From NCBI GenBank assembly GCA_964510945.1, contig CAZEED010000001.1, positions 98,774 through 162,773 on the forward strand: 64,000 bases of DNA, in the 5' to 3' direction. This DNA comes from an uncultured Candidatus Saccharibacteria bacterium (lineage in GTDB: Bacteria; Patescibacteriota; Saccharimonadia; Saccharimonadales; JAGQNJ01). The position numbers and the translations under genes were made by a program. The first letter of the stretch is position 1. Every line of letters begins with the position of its first letter. Below the pieces are notes generated by a model. It was not told where the DNA came from. It made no database searches and saw only the letters and a list, made by a program, of their open reading frames with translations. Shown here piece after piece: positions 2,712-53,960 of the stretch.

Positions 2712-3929
2712 ATGGATTTAGACATGAAACAGTTAGCGTTAGCCGTACGGACTATCGCAGAAGAGAAAAATTTGCCGGAAGAAACAGTTAAAGAAAGCGT
2801 AGAGCAAGCTTTAGCAGCAGCTTACAGACGAGATTATGGAGATCGTGAACAAGAAGTCCGAGTAACTATGAACCTTAATACAGGCGATATTGACGCTTAT
2901 GTCACTAAAGACGTCGTAGAAAAAGTTGAAGACGACAAAATTCAGATAAGTCTTCGCGATGCCAGTGTGATGAAGAAAGACGCTAAAGTAGGCGATCAGA
3001 TTGAAGTGCATCAAACAGTCGAAAGTTTTGGACGAGTAGCAGCCCAGACAGCAAAACAAGTAATTTTACAAAAACTTCGAGAAAGTGAACGCGAGATCAT
3101 CTTGGCCGAATACGAAGATAAAATCGGAACAGTAATCAATGGAATCGTGTCCCGAGTTGAAGGACGACTAGTGCGCGTTGACATTGGCAAGGCGCAAGGA
3201 ATAATGCCGGTTAGCGAACAGATTCAGGGCGAACACTACTATAGTGGTCAAAGGGTTAAAGTATACCTAAAAGACGTTGAGCGCGGGCTTCGAGGACCAC
3301 AGCTAATAGTGTCTAGAGGAAATACCGAGTTTATAGAATGGTTATTCCAAAACGAAGTGCCCGAGATGGAGAGTGGCGCTGTAGAAATCAAAAAGATTGC
3401 CCGTGAGGCTGGCGTCAGGACAAAACTTGCCGTTAATTCGACTGTACCTGGTGTTGATCCGGTAGGGACATTTGTTGGTGGACACGGCACCAGGGTAAAC
3501 GCGGTGATGAGCGAAGTTGGCGAACAAGAAAAAATCGATATTGTAGTCTGGGATGATGACGTTAAACAGTTCATAATCAATGCTTTGAGCCCAACAAAGG
3601 TTACTAAAGTAGAATTAGATGAAGCTACAAAAAAAGCAAAAGTTTTCGTACCGGAAGATCAACTATCAATTGCTATCGGTAAGAGTGGGCAGAACGTCAG
3701 GCTTGCGAGCAAACTCTCTGGCTATGAGCTAGATATTGAAGGTGATAAATCAAAGGTTGAAGAACCGACTTCTGCTGACGAGAATCCTGAAGTTACAGGA
3801 CCAGTACAAGCTAAGCCTGCGCATAAACCAGCAGAAACTGTTGATACTAAACCAAAAAAGTTAAAGAAGAAAAGTGAGCTAGAAAGTAGCCTGCTCGATG
3901 CTGTCGAAGAACACGGTACTGAAGAGTAA
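2712..3929 (+). CDS. nusA: Transcription termination/antitermination factor NusA
   Basis: N-terminal NusA domain (KQLALAV..EQALAAAYRRDYG), S1 and KH regions, acidic C-terminal tail. ATG at 2712 has a GGAAGG RBS; the track start 2688 is an alternative. Confidence 0.85.
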   Translation: MDLDMKQLALAVRTIAEEKNLPEETVKESVEQALAAAYRRDYGDREQEVRVTMNLNTGDIDAYVTKDVVEKVEDDKIQISLRDASVMKKDAKVGDQIEVHQTVESFGRVAAQTAKQVILQKLRESEREIILAEYEDKIGTVINGIVSRVEGRLVRVDIGKAQGIMPVSEQIQGEHYYSGQRVKVYLKDVERGLRGPQLIVSRGNTEFIEWLFQNEVPEMESGAVEIKKIAREAGVRTKLAVNSTVPGVDPVGTFVGGHGTRVNAVMSEVGEQEKIDIVVWDDDVKQFIINALSPTKVTKVELDEATKKAKVFVPEDQLSIAIGKSGQNVRLASKLSGYELDIEGDKSKVEEPTSADENPEVTGPVQAKPAHKPAETVDTKPKKLKKKSELESSLLDAVEEHGTEE

Positions 3930-33241: not shown

Positions 33242-34048
33242 CTATTTATTTATATTCGTTCCGTCTCCGAATAATTTACCAGAATTAAAATCAGCGCGCA
33301 TCCCCGTATAATCGCCAGTAGGTAACTGTATACTCCTAACCCTTATTGCAGCAATATCTATAGGATCTCCCATGACCGCTACATACATTCTCGCTTTTAC
33401 TTGTCTATTGACTGGGGTGCCATAGTCATCAGTGTCATATATGTACTCGTTAAAGCCGTAGCAACCTATTCTACGTGCAGTCTTATTACTTTCTTGTCGA
33501 TGGTCATAACTACTATTACTAGTTGTATACCATGATCTTGTTCCTTCTCTGTATAAACGAATGCTAACATGCGTATTCCAACTTTTTGCTTTCCAGCAAA
33601 GCTGTACTGCCATCGGACGATTACGAGTGTTTTCGGGCTTTGGAATGATAAAAGACTTTGATATATAGGTCATTCTTGGCGTATATAGACTAGTTCTAGA
33701 TCTCCAACCATTTATTTTACGCCCTTTAGAATTAGTGGATACTTTGATCTTGTGGCCAACAGACCTCCAATTTACTTGCGGAATACTAGTATCATACTGA
33801 TCTTCATTATTATTTTCTGCTGCTGCGTCGTCGTAGTTGAGTACTTTAATAGGTTTTTTCTCTACTATATCCCCAGCCGGATATGTTTTGCTGTAACCCT
33901 TCGATTGCGCGTCTGAATTTCTGATGTTGAATAAATCATTTTTGTATGCGAATACCCCTAAAGCTAACACTAAACCAATCAATAGCGACATAACTAATAT
34001 TGGTTGAAATCTACGATTTGTAGTTTTAGTTTTATTATTTGACTTCAT
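33242..34048 (-). CDS. Paralog A of an unknown secreted/membrane-anchored protein family (268 aa)
   Basis: Basic N-terminus plus single TM anchor. Conserved GWR, (M/L)A(V/L)xxCW(K/R), (H/Y)R(Y/Q)E, I(G/A)CYGF blocks shared with the two upstream paralogs. Confidence 0.7.
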   Translation of the reverse strand: MKSNNKTKTTNRRFQPILVMSLLIGLVLALGVFAYKNDLFNIRNSDAQSKGYSKTYPAGDIVEKKPIKVLNYDDAAAENNNEDQYDTSIPQVNWRSVGHKIKVSTNSKGRKINGWRSRTSLYTPRMTYISKSFIIPKPENTRNRPMAVQLCWKAKSWNTHVSIRLYREGTRSWYTTSNSSYDHRQESNKTARRIGCYGFNEYIYDTDDYGTPVNRQVKARMYVAVMGDPIDIAAIRVRSIQLPTGDYTGMRADFNSGKLFGDGTNINK

Positions 34049-34080
34049 ATGTTTAGTCTCATTTCAATTATTTAATATAA

Positions 34081-34881
34081 TTATCTTGTGATGTCCGTTT
34101 CGAATTGTCTCAGGTAATATCCATTACTGTCGTGTTCTTGTGGTTTTGTTGGTTCAAAGATTTTAATAGATGCCAGTTCAATGCCACCTTCAGGTACTTT
34201 AATGAAGAGTTTTGCTTTTATGGATTTTTTTATTCTTACCGCGTATTGTCCTCGATGTATTGGCTCACTCTGCGGATGTGATCTAGGTACGACAGATTTA
34301 TAGCCAACATCATAAAAACCCCAGCAAGCAATTTCGCGATACCGATTAGGATCGCTTTCATATCGATGGGTGAAATTTATATGATATGCTCCATCCTTGG
34401 TCCCCCACACTTTATTGATATCTCTACTCAAACGTAGTTTTATGGTTGTATTCTTTTCTAGAGCTCGCCAGCAAACATACACAGCCATTGGACGTTTTGA
34501 TGTAGGAATGGTAAACCATTTACTGAAGTAGACCCATCCTTCGTTATCTAGAGTGTGTTTTTCATCGGCGTGATTCATCCTCCAACCATCAATCATAGGG
34601 CCACCTGGTTTAGCGGGCATACGAATATTCCCGCCTTGAGATTTAACCGATACTAACTTACCTCTGTAATACTTGAATGGTGTGGGTTTGTAATTAACTA
34701 TTTTTCCCGCAGCATAGGTTTTATTATATCGTTTAGAATCCGCCGACGAATCTTTTAGATTCAGCAAATCCATACTAAAAATAACAAGTCCAATTACGAA
34801 TATTAATATAATTGAAAAAGTTATAATTTTTGATTTATTTGATAATTTAAGATCCTTATTTTTCTTTTTTTTGTTTGCCAT
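34081..34881 (-). CDS. Paralog B of the same family (266 aa)
   Basis: MANKKKKNK..signal-anchor..IRMPAKPGGPMIDGWR..MAVYVCWR..IACWGFYD. AAGGA RBS. A8 tract in codons 3-6. Confidence 0.7.
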   Translation of the reverse strand: MANKKKKNKDLKLSNKSKIITFSIILIFVIGLVIFSMDLLNLKDSSADSKRYNKTYAAGKIVNYKPTPFKYYRGKLVSVKSQGGNIRMPAKPGGPMIDGWRMNHADEKHTLDNEGWVYFSKWFTIPTSKRPMAVYVCWRALEKNTTIKLRLSRDINKVWGTKDGAYHINFTHRYESDPNRYREIACWGFYDVGYKSVVPRSHPQSEPIHRGQYAVRIKKSIKAKLFIKVPEGGIELASIKIFEPTKPQEHDSNGYYLRQFETDITR

Positions 34882-34912
34882 ATTTGTCCTTAGCTACATT
34901 TATTAGTTATCT

Positions 34913-35842
34913 TTAATTGGTGATGTCAGATTCAAACTGTCTATCGTAATAATTTGCACCGAGTTTAGATCTTTCAGGCGGTTGTGTTGGGTGAAAAACT
35001 TTTATTGAAGCAATTTCTACTTGGCCACGAACCTTTATATTAATTCTAGCCTTAATGGATTTGGATTTATTCATTTTTTTCATGTATTGCCCTGGATATA
35101 TTGGCTCGTTTTGCGGATGTGATCTAGGCACGACACGTTCATAGGCGATATCGTAAAAACCCCAACATTTTATTTTTTGCCACTCATCGTCACCATGTTC
35201 ATAACGATGTATATAGTTCATTATAGGCGCGCCATTTTTGTCTGACCATAATTCTCGTCTATTCTTGTTACTGAGCGTAGGACCTGCGAATAGAAGTTTT
35301 AATGATGTTTCTTTGCCGGACAATGATCTCCAGCAGACATATAAAGCTAGCGGTTTATCACTCTTGTCTTTTGGGATATTTATTTCTTTTGAAAAATAAG
35401 ACCAGTCAGGTAAATATGTAGTAAGTCTAGGGTTTACAGCTTTTTTATTGGGTTTTAACTTTTTAAAAAGTTTATCGTAGGTTGATGAGTTAACTAATGG
35501 CGATCGCCATCCCTTAATCATAGGACCTCCTGGTTTGGCAGGCATTCTTATGTTCTTTCCTAAAGATTTCATCATTACAAAATCATCGTCGCCGTATATT
35601 CCGCTATCTTTACGAACTTTTGTTTTGCCGTAGTTAACGATTTCGCCGGCTGGGTAAGTTCTATTGTAATTCTTAGAATCTGCAGATGAGTCTCTTAGAT
35701 TCAGCAAATCCATACTATAAATTAATAATGCAAGTACAATTACTAATAAAATTGAAAAAGTTATAATTTTTGTTTTATTTGATAATTTAAGATTCTTATT
35801 TTTCTTTTTTTGTTTGGCATTTTCTCTCCTATACTTAAGCAT
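34913..35842 (-). CDS. Paralog C of the same family (~309 aa from ATG 35842; track TTG at 35869)
   Basis: About 45% identity to paralog B overall, but near-identical DNA over the first ~60 codons and upstream region. Has an A7 tract where paralog B has A8. Confidence 0.65.
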   Translation of the reverse strand: MLKYRRENAKQKKKNKNLKLSNKTKIITFSILLVIVLALLIYSMDLLNLRDSSADSKNYNRTYPAGEIVNYGKTKVRKDSGIYGDDDFVMMKSLGKNIRMPAKPGGPMIKGWRSPLVNSSTYDKLFKKLKPNKKAVNPRLTTYLPDWSYFSKEINIPKDKSDKPLALYVCWRSLSGKETSLKLLFAGPTLSNKNRRELWSDKNGAPIMNYIHRYEHGDDEWQKIKCWGFYDIAYERVVPRSHPQNEPIYPGQYMKKMNKSKSIKARINIKVRGQVEIASIKVFHPTQPPERSKLGANYYDRQFESDITN

Positions 35843-36034
35843 TATACATAACACACTAATTGATTCCAATTTCTTATTTTATGTACTCTATTAACTATAA
35901 TTAAGAGTTAAAAGAATAATCCAAAAATGATTCTTTACTTGTATGCGTATTTTCGCTATTATATTCAGGTATCTCGCGTGAGTATTATATACTTATGCTA
36001 AATAATTAAGTAATTAACAGGAGTAACAACTAAA

Positions 36035-37402: not shown

Positions 37403-37789
37403 ATGGCTGAAGCCGATAAGACACAACCAACAAAAAAGCCAGCAGCAAAGTCTGCTGATCTAAAAGAAAAGGCCGTAGCTTCTACGAGTCAAAGGATTCG
37501 GATCCGATTAAAGGCTTATGATCATAAAGTAATTGATCAGGCTACAAAACAAATTGTCGATACTGCAATTCGTACAGGTGCTAATATTGCAGGACCAATC
37601 CCACTGCCAACAAGAAGAACCGTCTATACAGTCGTAAAAAGTCCGCATGTCTTTAAAAAAGGCCGAGAGCAGTTCGAGATGCGTACGCACAAACGACTCA
37701 TTGACGTATTAGAACCAACCCCTAAGACAATTGACTCGTTAATGAACCTAAGTCTGCCCGCTGGTTGCGATGCAGAAATTAAAATGTAG
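37403..37789 (+). CDS. rpsJ: 30S ribosomal protein S10 with ~30 aa Lys/Ala-rich N-terminal extension
   Basis: Core [20 protein letters not shown] 37403 with AAAGAAAGG RBS. Confidence 0.9.
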
Positions 37790-37798
37790 ATTTCTTGT

Positions 37799-37990
37799 AT
37801 ACTTTTGTGCCGGCAAAAGTATGGCAAAACCTCGGGCTATCCGTTTGTCTTTACATATCTTCTTGTCAATAATCACAACAGCCTGCGGAACTCATCCGCC
37901 TGCTGGCGGACTCAAACAGTCCTCGGCATTCTAGTTGTGATTTTGACGAAGTTAATCAGGACAAGCCGGAGGCCCAAACAACATCATCGA
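37799..37990 (+). ncRNA. Structured RNA-like element, copy 1 (5' module only), homologous to 53015-53220
   Basis: Shared hairpin ATACTTTTG-loop-CAAAAGTAT. Conserved blocks CTCGGGCT, ACAACAGYCTGCGGAACTC, ACAGTCCTCG. One hairpin kept by compensatory change (tccgcc/ggcgga here, ccccgcacc/ggtgcgggg in copy 2). Confidence 0.35.
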
Positions 37991-38013
37991 AAATATAATG
38001 ATACAATACGTTT

Positions 38014-38277
38014 ATGGCAAAAAAACAAAAACGTATAAGAGAAACAGACGATGCATATTTCTTAAAACTAGTATTATTCATGATCTTGGGATCAATGTGG
38101 TTAAAAGTCAGTGATGGTCAATCTTGGCAAATTCCGTTACCCATAGGACTAGTTTTCGGAATACTACTGGCGAGACATGACCATTTTAGGATAGATCGTA
38201 AAATAGAATATGCTGTGCTACTAATTGCAGCGTTTGTGGGTTTTTGGGCGCCAATAGGGATTTATATTAATCTGTAA
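38014..38277 (+). CDS. Hypothetical small membrane protein (87 aa, 2 TM) inserted between rpsJ and rplC
   Basis: Two hydrophobic helices. Weak RBS. Confidence 0.4.
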   Translation: MAKKQKRIRETDDAYFLKLVLFMILGSMWLKVSDGQSWQIPLPIGLVFGILLARHDHFRIDRKIEYAVLLIAAFVGFWAPIGIYINL

Positions 38278-52132: not shown

Positions 52133-52573
52133 ATGAAAACTTATAGTGCCAAAAATACCGATGTAGAACGCAAATGGTGGCTGGTTGATGCTTCTGATTT
52201 AACTTTAGGTAGATTATCAACTGTTATTGCGACAAAACTCACAGGCAAAGATAAACCTATATTTAGCCCTCACGTTGATTGTGGCGACTATGTAGTAGTA
52301 ATAAACTCAGATAAATTAGTAGTTACTGGCGATAAACTTAACAAAAAGACTTATTATCGACATAGTGGCTTCCCTGGAAATCTTAAAGAGTCTAGCCTTC
52401 AAGAGCAAATCGATAAGGATTCGAGAAACGTAATTATATACTCGGTACGCGGAATGCTACCTAAAAACAAGTTACAAGACCCTAGAATAAAACGATTAAA
52501 AGTGTACGCTGGACCTGAGCACGATAACACCGCACAACAGCCAACAACGCTAAATCTTAAGGAAGGTAAATAA
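52133..52573 (+). CDS. rplM: 50S ribosomal protein L13
   Basis: L13 family sequence. Confidence 0.93.
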   Translation: MKTYSAKNTDVERKWWLVDASDLTLGRLSTVIATKLTGKDKPIFSPHVDCGDYVVVINSDKLVVTGDKLNKKTYYRHSGFPGNLKESSLQEQIDKDSRNVIIYSVRGMLPKNKLQDPRIKRLKVYAGPEHDNTAQQPTTLNLKEGK

Positions 52574-52974
52574 TGGCTATAAAAAACGCATATTTCTATG
52601 GTTTAGGACGAAGAAAAAGTGCCTCAGCACGAGTCAGGATTTCGGGCGGTAGCGGAAAATTCATTATCAATGATCACACAGCTGAAGATTATTTCGCTAA
52701 TAGTAAAAATTTGCTAAATGAACTAACAAAACCATTTACTGCGGTTGATCTAGTTAATAAGTTTGATGTTAGCGTTAAAGTTATTGGTGGAGGACACAGT
52801 GGACAAGCTGATGCCATTATCCTAGGTATTTCAAAAGCACTTGCAGTTATGAACGAAGATCTTAGAAGCACATTGCGTCGTGCAGACCTACTCGGTCGCG
52901 ATCCAAGAGAGAAAGAACGTAAGAAGTTCGGACTCAAGGGCGCTCGTAAACAAAGACAGTTCACAAAACGATAA
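52573..52974 (+). CDS. rpsI: 30S ribosomal protein S9
   Basis: S9 family with the GGGxxGQ motif. ATGA overlap with rplM. Confidence 0.93.
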   Translation: MAIKNAYFYGLGRRKSASARVRISGGSGKFIINDHTAEDYFANSKNLLNELTKPFTAVDLVNKFDVSVKVIGGGHSGQADAIILGISKALAVMNEDLRSTLRRADLLGRDPREKERKKFGLKGARKQRQFTKR

Positions 52975-53014
52975 TTTTCAAATTTTTGAGTAAAATAACA
53001 TTTTCGCAGTTTCA

Positions 53015-53392
53015 ATACTTTTGACCGCCAAAAGTATGACAAAAGCTCGGGCTTAACGTTTTTTCTTGACTAACTCACTAGTCAAGACAAACAACAGTCT
53101 GCGGAACTCCCCCGCACCTATTGCTTAGACAAAAGGTGCGGGGTCAGACAGTCCTCGCCTGATAGTTGTTTGTTTGACCTGAGTCATCAGGAAAAAGCCG
53201 ATGCCCAACACAAAAAACAACCCCGCAACGTTAGTCTGGTCGTTGGCCAGATAAACGATGAGTATTACATATTGTTGGCATCCGGCTTGTCCTGAATAAC
53301 TTCGTTAAAGTAACAACAAAAAAGGCGAGGACTGTTTGAAGTTAGTAGTATGCCTGAGTGGCATATTACTAACAAGTTTCGCAGTCTGTTGT
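53015..53392 (+). ncRNA. Structured RNA-like element, copy 2 (full length ~380 nt) with nested long-range helices
   Basis: 5' module homologous to 37799-37990. 16-bp helix 53145-53160/53323-53338. 13-bp helix 53091-53103/53380-53392. Local hairpins 53015-53037, 53067-53088, 53110-53143, 53344-53368. No ORF. Confidence 0.35.
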
Positions 53393-53657
53393 TATCTTTA
53401 ACTAGAAGTTATATAAAGACAAACGAAAAGCCAAGAGTTTTGTATTACTTTGGCGATACAAAGTAATAGTTTTTGAATTATATTTACAAAATTTCTGACA
53501 TGATTGATAATACTTGACAAATTATATATGAAGCTGTATTGTCTTATGGTTATGTTTCAAAACATTATAAACAACACAACTTATTGGTTTACCTCCAAAT
53601 ATTCATGGCGGCAAACTTCGTATTGTCTATAAAATAACAAACTATCAAGAAATATTA

Positions 53658-53680
53658 ACCGCCACCAAGGCGGTTTTTTA
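53658..53680 (+). terminator. Rho-independent terminator (accgcc/ggcggt + T6) upstream of the GC-richer cassette
   Basis: 6-bp GC stem, 5-nt loop, T-tract. Lies 20 nt before the ATG at 53700. Confidence 0.6.
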
Positions 53681-53699
53681 ATAGTAAAGGAGAATAATC

Positions 53700-53960
53700 A
53701 TGATAAGACCAGAGCATAATCCAGAGAGAGTAACGGCAGGTCTACCGGACCAGATAGAATCAATCCCGAGTAGATTGCTAATTGCTCTAGATCAAGGAGT
53801 AATTAAAGAATCAGATTTAGTACCAAATATTGCAGCGACTATAAGCAGTAATCATAGGCCCGAAGTTGACCCACCATTAAATATTCATGAACAAGTAGAA
53901 CGAACCAGACACATAAATCAATTAGCAGCTAGCTGCGTAGAACAATTTTCAAAACAATAA
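53700..53960 (+). CDS. Hypothetical protein (86 aa), first gene of the cassette
   Basis: Strong RBS AAAGGAGAA. No recognisable motifs. Confidence 0.45.
   Translation: MIRPEHNPERVTAGLPDQIESIPSRLLIALDQGVIKESDLVPNIAATISSNHRPEVDPPLNIHEQVERTRHINQLAASCVEQFSKQ

Follow-up and report, generated by a model that had tools for sequence, protein, structure and literature searches.

A probable REPIN/MITE-like foldback repeat family of Candidatus Saccharibacteria built from a covarying ~200-nt unit

Results

The region downstream of rpsI

We analysed a stretch of 64,000 nt (here called the window) from an uncultured Candidatus Saccharibacteria bacterium, which corresponds to positions 98,774-162,773 of the forward strand of contig CAZEED010000001.1 in assembly GCA_964510945.1. 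The gene rpsI (PF00380; protein cluster [quoted passage not shown]) lies at 52573-52974 on the + strand. A first-pass annotation of the window had described positions 53015-53392 in the gap behind rpsI as a strongly structured element without coding capacity. Both properties were borne out: ORFs within 52975-53699 comprise 40-42 aa only, none of them reaching 60 aa, and the + strand of 53000-53420 folds with -183.6 kcal/mol as compared to -97.4 ± 5.3 kcal/mol in 100 dinucleotide shuffles (z = -16.3). The - strand of the same region yields -172.9 kcal/mol (z = -10.6).

An inverted-repeat scan and the MFE fold both recovered the two long-range duplexes proposed earlier, i.e., an outer duplex joining 53091-53103 to 53380-53392 and a 16-bp duplex joining 53145-53160 to 53323-53338. 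The same holds for the hairpins at 53015-53037, 53110-53143 and 53344-53368, the latter spanning 53341-53373 in our analysis. A further hairpin had been placed at 53067-53088; it is present in the inverted-repeat scan, which pairs 53060-53072 with 53079-53091, but does not appear within those limits in the MFE fold, which pairs 53065-53073 with 53080-53088. A search of the whole window with Rfam 15 at the gathering threshold returned four tRNAs only, in agreement with the earlier statement that RNase P, tmRNA, SRP and 6S RNA could not be matched. At E<=10, a scan of 52900-53750 gave zero matches within 53000-53480 and a scan of one complete foldback element gave sub-threshold noise only, while Rfam on 15 related loci detected nothing except an unrelated RNase P and one tRNA.

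Self-BLAST of the window together with a three-way alignment revealed one repeat that is present three times, namely at 53005-53215, as the reverse complement of 53265-53470, and at 37790-37990, with a mean column identity of 76% between the copies. The first two copies are part of a foldback element of 529 bp (52985-53513), which consists of two inverted units and a central spacer and of which the region flagged earlier is the inner part. The element begins 10 nt past the rpsI stop codon and ends directly before the TTGACA of a promoter-like site. Its left unit (c1L, 53000-53217, + strand) is co-oriented with rpsI and scores 167.6 bits (E = 1e-38) with R1, a covariance model of the unit. It contains a 5' hairpin termed hp1 (53015-53037, AUACUUUUG-accgc-CAAAAGUAU) and a rod extending from GGGC to GCCC (53049-53206). 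Within the rod lie the invariant core motif A (53091-53108, ACAACAGtCTGCGGAACT), which provides the 5' arm of the outer long-range duplex, a variable apical hairpin (53110-53143) with constant position and differing sequence and length across copies, and the invariant core motif B (53144-53160, TCAgACAGTCCTCGCC), which provides the 5' arm of the 16-bp duplex; all of these are on the + strand. The central spacer (53218-53264) includes a small hairpin at ~53229-53257. The right unit (c1R, 53265-53481) is inverted, i.e., on the - strand, and scores 157.7 bits (E = 2.7e-36). Its rod occupies 53275-53434, its cores 53323-53338 and 53375-53392, its variable hairpin 53341-53373 and its hp1 53443-53468.

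When folded alone, c1L adopts the rod fold of the family with -78.6 kcal/mol, and the antisense right unit alone reaches -72.4 kcal/mol. For the whole doublet, an imperfect hairpin of ~200 bp is predicted (-207.9 kcal/mol). The extreme ends of the element show weak symmetry only (TTTTGAGTAAAATAAC vs the reverse complement TTTTGTAAATATAAT). c1L is 83% identical to a unit at locus L028 from another MAG, and c1R is closest to a unit at L030 from a third MAG (78%), whereas c1L and c1R share 66-74% identity. These values indicate that both arms are members of different subfamilies.

The two long-range duplexes exist because the motifs ACAACAGnCTGCG and CAAACAGTCCTCGCC, the two most conserved motifs of the unit, pair with their reverse complements in the inverted copy. 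Likewise, the enclosing helices arise because two units are arranged tail to tail, and the "380-nt RNA" of the first-pass annotation is this tail-to-tail pair. Thus, the long-range helices are a product of inverted duplication and not a selected RNA architecture.

A third copy of the unit stands alone (c2, 37791-37998, + strand; R1 164.5 bits) right after the stop codon of rpsJ (37787-37789), with hp1 at 37799-37825, core A at 37875-37892 and core B at ~37910-37927. These first 208 bp after rpsJ are free of ORFs. As a single copy, c2 cannot form long-range helices, yet its R1 score equals that of the other copies, and it folds alone into the rod (z = -6.9). It resides within the S10 operon, where read-through to rplC is required. 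Two side observations concern the same locus. The RpsJ protein encoded here has 128 aa, its N-terminus being ~25 residues longer than usual, and a hydrophobic ORF of 87 aa (38014-38277) without significant Pfam match is located between rpsJ and rplC, where it interrupts the normally contiguous S10 operon; this ORF is kept in every relative examined.

Family census and anatomy of the unit

The GTDB species genomes were searched with a 17-nt core pattern, which matched 118 stretches. Sixteen of these, originating from nine MAGs all labelled Candidatus Saccharibacteria or Patescibacteria, also showed a second motif or a model match. The remaining ~100 had neither and are chance matches in unrelated taxa. 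A two-motif pattern identified 53 metagenome stretches; plasmid, phage and viral-contig searches for the repeat gave no match. With R1 and a family cut-off of E<1e-10, we collected 64 copies (63 distinct), which derive from Candidatus Saccharibacteria/Patescibacteria MAGs and metagenomes only. Several copies, roughly ten or fewer, were detected per MAG. Our literature searches found no published description of a comparable repeat or ncRNA from Saccharibacteria or CPR.

The unit of ~200 nt is composed of the 5' hairpin, an A-rich linker and a rod of ~70 bp. Hairpin hp1 comprises 9-13 bp (consensus ACYUUKG...CAARRGU). At least 56 of 61 units have it, its stem occurring as 57 distinct strings. 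The rod is formed by 43 consensus pairs, including CUUGA/UCAGG with its nearly invariant U.G, GUCAA/UUGAC and ACAAC/GUUGU. At its apex resides an invariant core of ~40 nt (ACAACAGnCUGCGGAACU ... UCAAACAGUCCUCGnC ... UAGUUGU) together with a tip hairpin, whose sequence and length change in every subfamily. CUGCGGAACU opposite AGUCCUCGnC forms an invariant irregular apical helix, and a UCAAAC motif is conserved and unpaired. Many copies possess an additional hairpin upstream and another small one past the rod. Conservation peaks at the apex of the arm and not at its termini.

A variant at locus L020 (4905-5120) has an hp1 that is 95% identical to that of c1R and the same rod base (CUGGGC...GCCC), whereas its rod interior is wholly different and lacks either core motif. 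A SnoaL-like gene separates this variant from a canonical unit. The variant may belong to a sister family with a common outer scaffold.

The helices of the unit covary

The first-pass annotation had suggested a covariation check in homologues. We ran it, and the helices of the ~200-nt unit covary in the relatives. In an alignment of 17 sequences (MAFFT/RNAalifold), 21 of 43 pairs showed compensatory changes. Among the 63 distinct sequences, whose alignment was fitted to R1 and therefore favours structure, changes on both sides occurred in 31 of the 43 pairs (458 cells), and 90.9% of the cells were paired as compared to 32-43% when the partners were slid by 1-3 columns; the independent MAFFT/RNAalifold alignment gives the same picture. 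The covariation score was 0.40 vs 0.04-0.08 in the controls, and none of 500 shuffles reached the observed values. The helices of the unit are thus maintained by compensatory changes over 63 distinct copies. Of the earlier functional-RNA reading, what stands is a non-coding, structured sequence with a second locus and covarying homologues. The proposal of one ~380-nt RNA with nested long-range helices was not upheld, as the covarying object is the self-folding ~200-nt unit.

With respect to the functional strand, our data are contradictory. G.U and U.G pairs together occupy 51 cells and A.C and C.A together 80 cells (invariant U.G excluded), and in 43 of 61 copies the rod folds more stably as its antisense strand, overall by ~2.7 kcal/mol. 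This stands against the mostly gene-co-oriented placement of the units (see below). One wobble and one mismatch are invariant on either strand; on the modelled strand, these are the U.G in CUUGA/UCAGG and the A.C in GGAACU/AGUCC, both invariant or nearly so.

Genomic context of single units and doublets

Across the collected genomes, the unit is a discrete module that is present several times per genome beside unrelated housekeeping genes. The gene upstream of solo units was co-oriented in 25 and opposite in 8 of 33 cases, and the solo units mostly start 0-90 nt past the stop codon of a co-oriented gene. Upstream genes encode e.g. type II secretion protein F, an aminotransferase, a response regulator, a DNA alkylation repair enzyme and PfkB. 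Other upstream genes encode aminoacyl-tRNA synthetases and ribosomal proteins (including rpsI, rpsJ and rpmA). One unit (L124, 1971-2163) and the 3' end of a convergently oriented gene for bacterial RNase P RNA (2194-2539, 271 bits) are 30 nt apart; thus, the repeat settles next to RNA genes too.

Tail-to-tail doublets were observed at ~14 loci. Most of their spacers measure 38-47 nt, and several contain a small hairpin. Head-to-head pairs amounted to zero among the collected copies. Single units score 129-167 bits with R1, which is the range of the better doublet arms. Where the arms of a doublet are unequal, the upstream gene runs in the direction of the better-kept arm in 11 cases as opposed to 3, a hint of transcription-linked selection and thereby of a host-level RNA role. 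For the detection of decayed partner arms, BLAST was too insensitive and duplex energy too noisy. The MAG RIFCSPHIGHO2_12_FULL_41_12 harbors four elements of ~500-570 bp with the ends ATTGCG...CGCAAT, which are 72-91% identical and have unrelated flanks. Their second arm is an inverted unit, conserved but degenerate.

Our search for a partner gene covered ~70 loci with fetched neighbourhoods of 2-15 kb from incomplete MAGs. All-against-all clustering of 324 neighbour ORFs revealed no recurrent protein family within 3 kb of the units, and when 133 neighbour proteins within ~1.3 kb were compared with Pfam, no family was common to more than two; both searches yielded housekeeping genes only. The matches beside units fall into 134 Pfam families, the 25 most frequent of which include no transposase, and the Pfam scan of the 20 larger ORFs in the window gave none either. 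Between widely spaced arms, ORFs for a SnoaL-like protein and an ArsR-type regulator were found, which are not transposases.

Both window loci are polymorphic among close relatives

Contigs encoding an identical RpsI protein fall into three classes after rpsI. The first (L173, L174, L176, L177 and others) is 100% identical to the window and has the element. In the second (L175, L180 and L181), the flanks are 96.5-97.7% identical and exactly 52985-53513 is missing. At this AT-rich empty site, 52984 is joined to 53514 with a 2-nt TT overlap. The third is represented by L172 (ERZ15185638 NODE_101), whose rpsI DNA is 99.5% identical and which diverges completely right past the stop codon; from position 3402, it encodes a 243-aa protein without Pfam match and then prephenate dehydratase. 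In this lineage, the comparison of these contigs points to a rearrangement hotspot downstream of rpsI.

The rpsJ copy is kept in the relatives L182, L184 and L185. In L183, L187 and L188, 37791-37998 is replaced by an unrelated sequence of 188 bp, while the flanks are 95-99% identical. An ORF for a proline-rich 50-aa protein (MPPKNEQPPEQQERKPYVPP..., no Pfam match) is found in the replacement (L183 2190-2377; L187, L188). As the alignments indicate, the spacer between rpsJ and rplC acts as a site of cassette exchange. Relatives of 95-99% identity differ at both window loci, either by presence or absence of the repeat or by its replacement. Since the 529-bp block is absent from relatives that are ~97% identical, it behaves as an interspersed or mobile repeat and not as a fixed RNA gene. 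The indel at rpsI could also represent a deletion in the relatives instead of an insertion here. Across the four copies of one MAG, there is no consistent target-site duplication.

Discussion

Most likely, with a probability of roughly 60%, the element belongs to a new, Candidatus Saccharibacteria-specific family of REPIN/MITE-like foldback repeats whose arms are selected for single-strand structure. Dispersal, subfamilies, doublets and presence/absence alleles together argue for an element that is interspersed and probably mobilised in trans. Selection on the folded strand, and not on terminal transposase sites, is indicated by the invariant apex, by compensatory stems and by single units that are kept equally well. 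We therefore picture a non-autonomous interspersed element that would have spread through an enzyme acting in trans or through inter-strain recombination, the folded single strand being the form that would be recognised during spread. As no terminator separates the rpsI stop codon from the element, transcription of rpsI would read into it. In the transcript, the local rod (-79 kcal/mol) would fold first, and the imperfect hairpin of ~200 bp (-208 kcal/mol) would follow once the second arm has been made. This hairpin would likely be a substrate of RNase III or act as a 3'-end block on the rpsI message.

Several observations speak against this reading. No transposase or partner gene was found at the ~70 loci, either within ~1.3 kb (Pfam) or within 3 kb (clustering), and a clear target-site duplication was not seen, the lone empty-site junction having a 2-nt TT overlap. 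Moreover, the apex is the most conserved part, whereas classical TIR transposons show the reverse, and solo units match doublet arms in conservation, unlike decaying REP singlets.

REP sequences are palindromes of 20-40 nt that occur in hundreds of copies and decay as singlets. REPINs are inverted doublets of REP sequences, with hairpins that form in ssDNA or mRNA and are maintained by compensatory changes (PMC3116915). REPINs are the closest described logic to the Saccharibacteria doublets. Both are non-coding, extragenic and multi-copy, form inverted doublets with a short spacer and a predicted long hairpin, and also occur as singlets. The Saccharibacteria unit differs in its length of ~200 nt, its nested multi-hairpin fold and its invariant apical core of ~40 nt. 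In addition, its solo units (129-167 bits) do not follow the singlet decay of REP/REPIN, and roughly ten or fewer copies were detected per MAG as compared to hundreds for REPINs. A RAYT or other Y1 transposase was not found near any copy in the fetched 2-15-kb neighbourhoods.

A likeness to MITEs lies in the small size of the elements (208 bp and 529 bp, thus below ~600 bp), in their non-coding nature and in 63 distinct copies at unrelated loci. As for the TIRs of MITEs, the arms are inverted copies of each other and the ends ATTGCG...CGCAAT recur in one MAG, whereas solo units have no TIR; a cognate autonomous IS was not found within 3 kb of the units. ERIC/IRU, the Neisseria Correia/NEMIS and the pneumococcal RUP/BOX elements are small intergenic repeats downstream of genes with which they are co-transcribed. 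They form long RNA hairpins that are possible targets of RNase III or RNase E, and their presence is polymorphic between strains. Structurally, they are simple hairpins of 100-160 bp that arise from terminal inverted repeats, with TA duplications. The Saccharibacteria repeat resembles this class as a non-coding sequence 3' of genes with presence/absence polymorphism. It differs in that every arm forms a rod of its own, with conserved asymmetric loops and apex-peaked conservation, and no TA duplication was found at one empty-site junction and in four copies of one MAG.

HEARO/IscB and TnpB omega-RNA are structured RNAs inside mobile elements, with many ORF-less copies and a pseudoknotted multi-stem scaffold. 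They share with the Saccharibacteria repeat a structure supported by covariation, copies without ORF and ends that can be defined from filled vs empty sites. Unlike them, the unit is a simple rod, and the foldback doublet form is foreign to those elements. Neither an IscB nor a TnpB gene was found beside any copy, and HEARO gave no Rfam match. Taken together, these comparisons suggest that the repeat is a new family among the interspersed palindromic or foldback repeats.

Other known structures were considered and rejected. Hairpin ribozymes carry AGAA opposite A/GUC in loop A, defined nucleotides in loop B and two helices that can dock. This comparison had been prompted by ACA/GUC in core B; however, an invariant AACU lies opposite AGUC, the place of loop B is taken by the variable hairpin, and Rfam gave no match even at E<=10. 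The integron attC site is an imperfect palindrome of 57-141 bp with the R''/R' cores RYYYAAC and GTTRRRY at its base, whereas our unit has ~200 nt and its rod base CGGGC...GCCC(R)GAC contains no R''/R' cores. An intrinsic terminator does not fit either: the only such hairpin inside units (53100-53116) is copy-specific, the family has no T-run, and hp1 is followed by the A-rich linker. Resemblances to an r-protein leader, to SRP and to Y RNA lack the defining features or extend over 6-10 nt only. An independent sRNA gene encoded opposite to the unit was rejected as well, since 61 copies revealed no promoter-like site that keeps a consistent distance.

A rival to be taken seriously, albeit less likely, is that the unit is a host-beneficial, cis-acting RNA module of 3'UTRs that has been recruited to many genes, e.g. 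as a stability or processing element, a protein platform or a part of a composite terminator. Doublets would then be the modules of two convergent transcription units, or one module with a decayed copy. The co-oriented upstream gene at 0-90 nt from the stop codon in 25 of 33 solo units fits such a role, as do the invariant core and the covarying stems over many genomes, the solo units being kept as well as doublet arms, and the 11:3 orientation of the intact arm in unequal doublets. A number of copies have a GC-rich hairpin 10-40 nt past the rod, in several cases with a T-run, so that the unit would lie between the stop codon and a terminator, and c2 inside the S10 operon must be read through to rplC. 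However, some copies are located after and not before a terminator-like hairpin, the upstream genes have no common function, and the presence at a locus varies even at 95-99% identity. No co-oriented gene precedes c1R or other second arms, and the wobble counts (51 vs 80) and the antisense rod being stabler in 43/61 copies do not point to the sense strand.

It appears doubtful that the unit works as folded ssDNA, be it as a substrate of recombination or transposition (similar to the ends of IS200/IS605, REP hairpins or attC) or as a single-strand initiation site. Its orientation bias would then reflect the replication strand and not transcription. This idea agrees with wobble and mismatch counts that are nearly symmetric between the strands, with one invariant of each per strand, with units that have no conserved promoter or terminator of their own, and with one mapped junction that shows no long target duplication. 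Furthermore, the doublet logic is like that of REPINs with their hairpins in ssDNA or mRNA and their compensatory changes (PMC3116915). Against it, no HUH/Y1 transposase or tyrosine recombinase is among the 25 most frequent of the 134 Pfam families in the neighbourhoods, REP and attC sites are shorter than the unit by a factor of five to ten, the unit being conserved at its tip instead of its base, and inspection of the alignment showed that attC R''/R' core sites are missing.

We consider it improbable that the ~200-nt unit represents an undescribed class of functional structured RNA confined to Saccharibacteria, in which the invariant irregular apical helix beside the variable hairpin would act as a small self-cleaving ribozyme or as a high-affinity site for a lineage-specific protein. 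Were it true, this class would have spread through these minimal genomes as a foldback element in the 3' UTRs of highly expressed genes, and it would be an RNA-based element, selfish or domesticated, whose neighbourhood encodes no protein partner.

Finally, a stand-alone functional RNA of ~380 nt with two nested long-range helices (ribozyme, processing RNA or long 3'UTR-derived sRNA) agrees with the extreme + strand stability, the nested helices in the MFE structure and the lack of both ORF and Rfam match, but is very improbable because the enclosing helices are invariant motifs pairing with their reverse complements in two inverted units and cannot form in the single units that make up most of the family, the arms come from different subfamilies with 66-74% identity to each other, the block is missing in close relatives, and no conserved promoter was found (antisense side of 61 copies; both strands at the window loci).

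The genomes of Saccharibacteria and other Patescibacteria have ~1 Mb and are strongly streamlined. In such genomes, a persistent multi-copy repeat of 200-530 bp is unexpected baggage, all the more so as its core is invariant and its stems evolve by compensatory changes across many species. One recent survey reported no group II introns in Patescibacteria (PMC13011429). The repeat is either a successful selfish element spread by some mobilising activity or a lineage-specific RNA module. At sites after essential, highly expressed genes, the predicted hairpin of ~200 bp would have to affect mRNA 3' ends. R1 offers a starting point for a census and for population studies, in which filled and empty alleles mark variable sites.

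Other features of the window

On the - strand, three consecutive ORFs of 268, 266 and 318 aa without Pfam match are located at 33245-35869, just upstream of tuf. Downstream of the foldback element, a promoter-like site, a leader and a terminator (53514-53682, + strand) form a native context outside the element that is kept in the empty-site relatives. The promoter-like site reads TTGACA-17-TATTGT (53514-53542), and the terminator at 53657-53675 with its T-run is the only canonical one in the consensus scan. The leader of ~130 nt between the element and an 86-aa ORF includes a short ORF that starts with ATG at 53546 or 53552, ends at 53632 and contains two Trp codons. A UGGCGG in it has the same sequence as the 3' half of the terminator stem and could thus act as an antiterminator. 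The downstream 724-aa protein has a HAD domain and a faint match to the anthranilate-phosphoribosyltransferase family (Glycos_transf_3). The stretch 53514-53690 matches Trp_leader weakly (E = 0.69) and may be a Trp-type attenuator.
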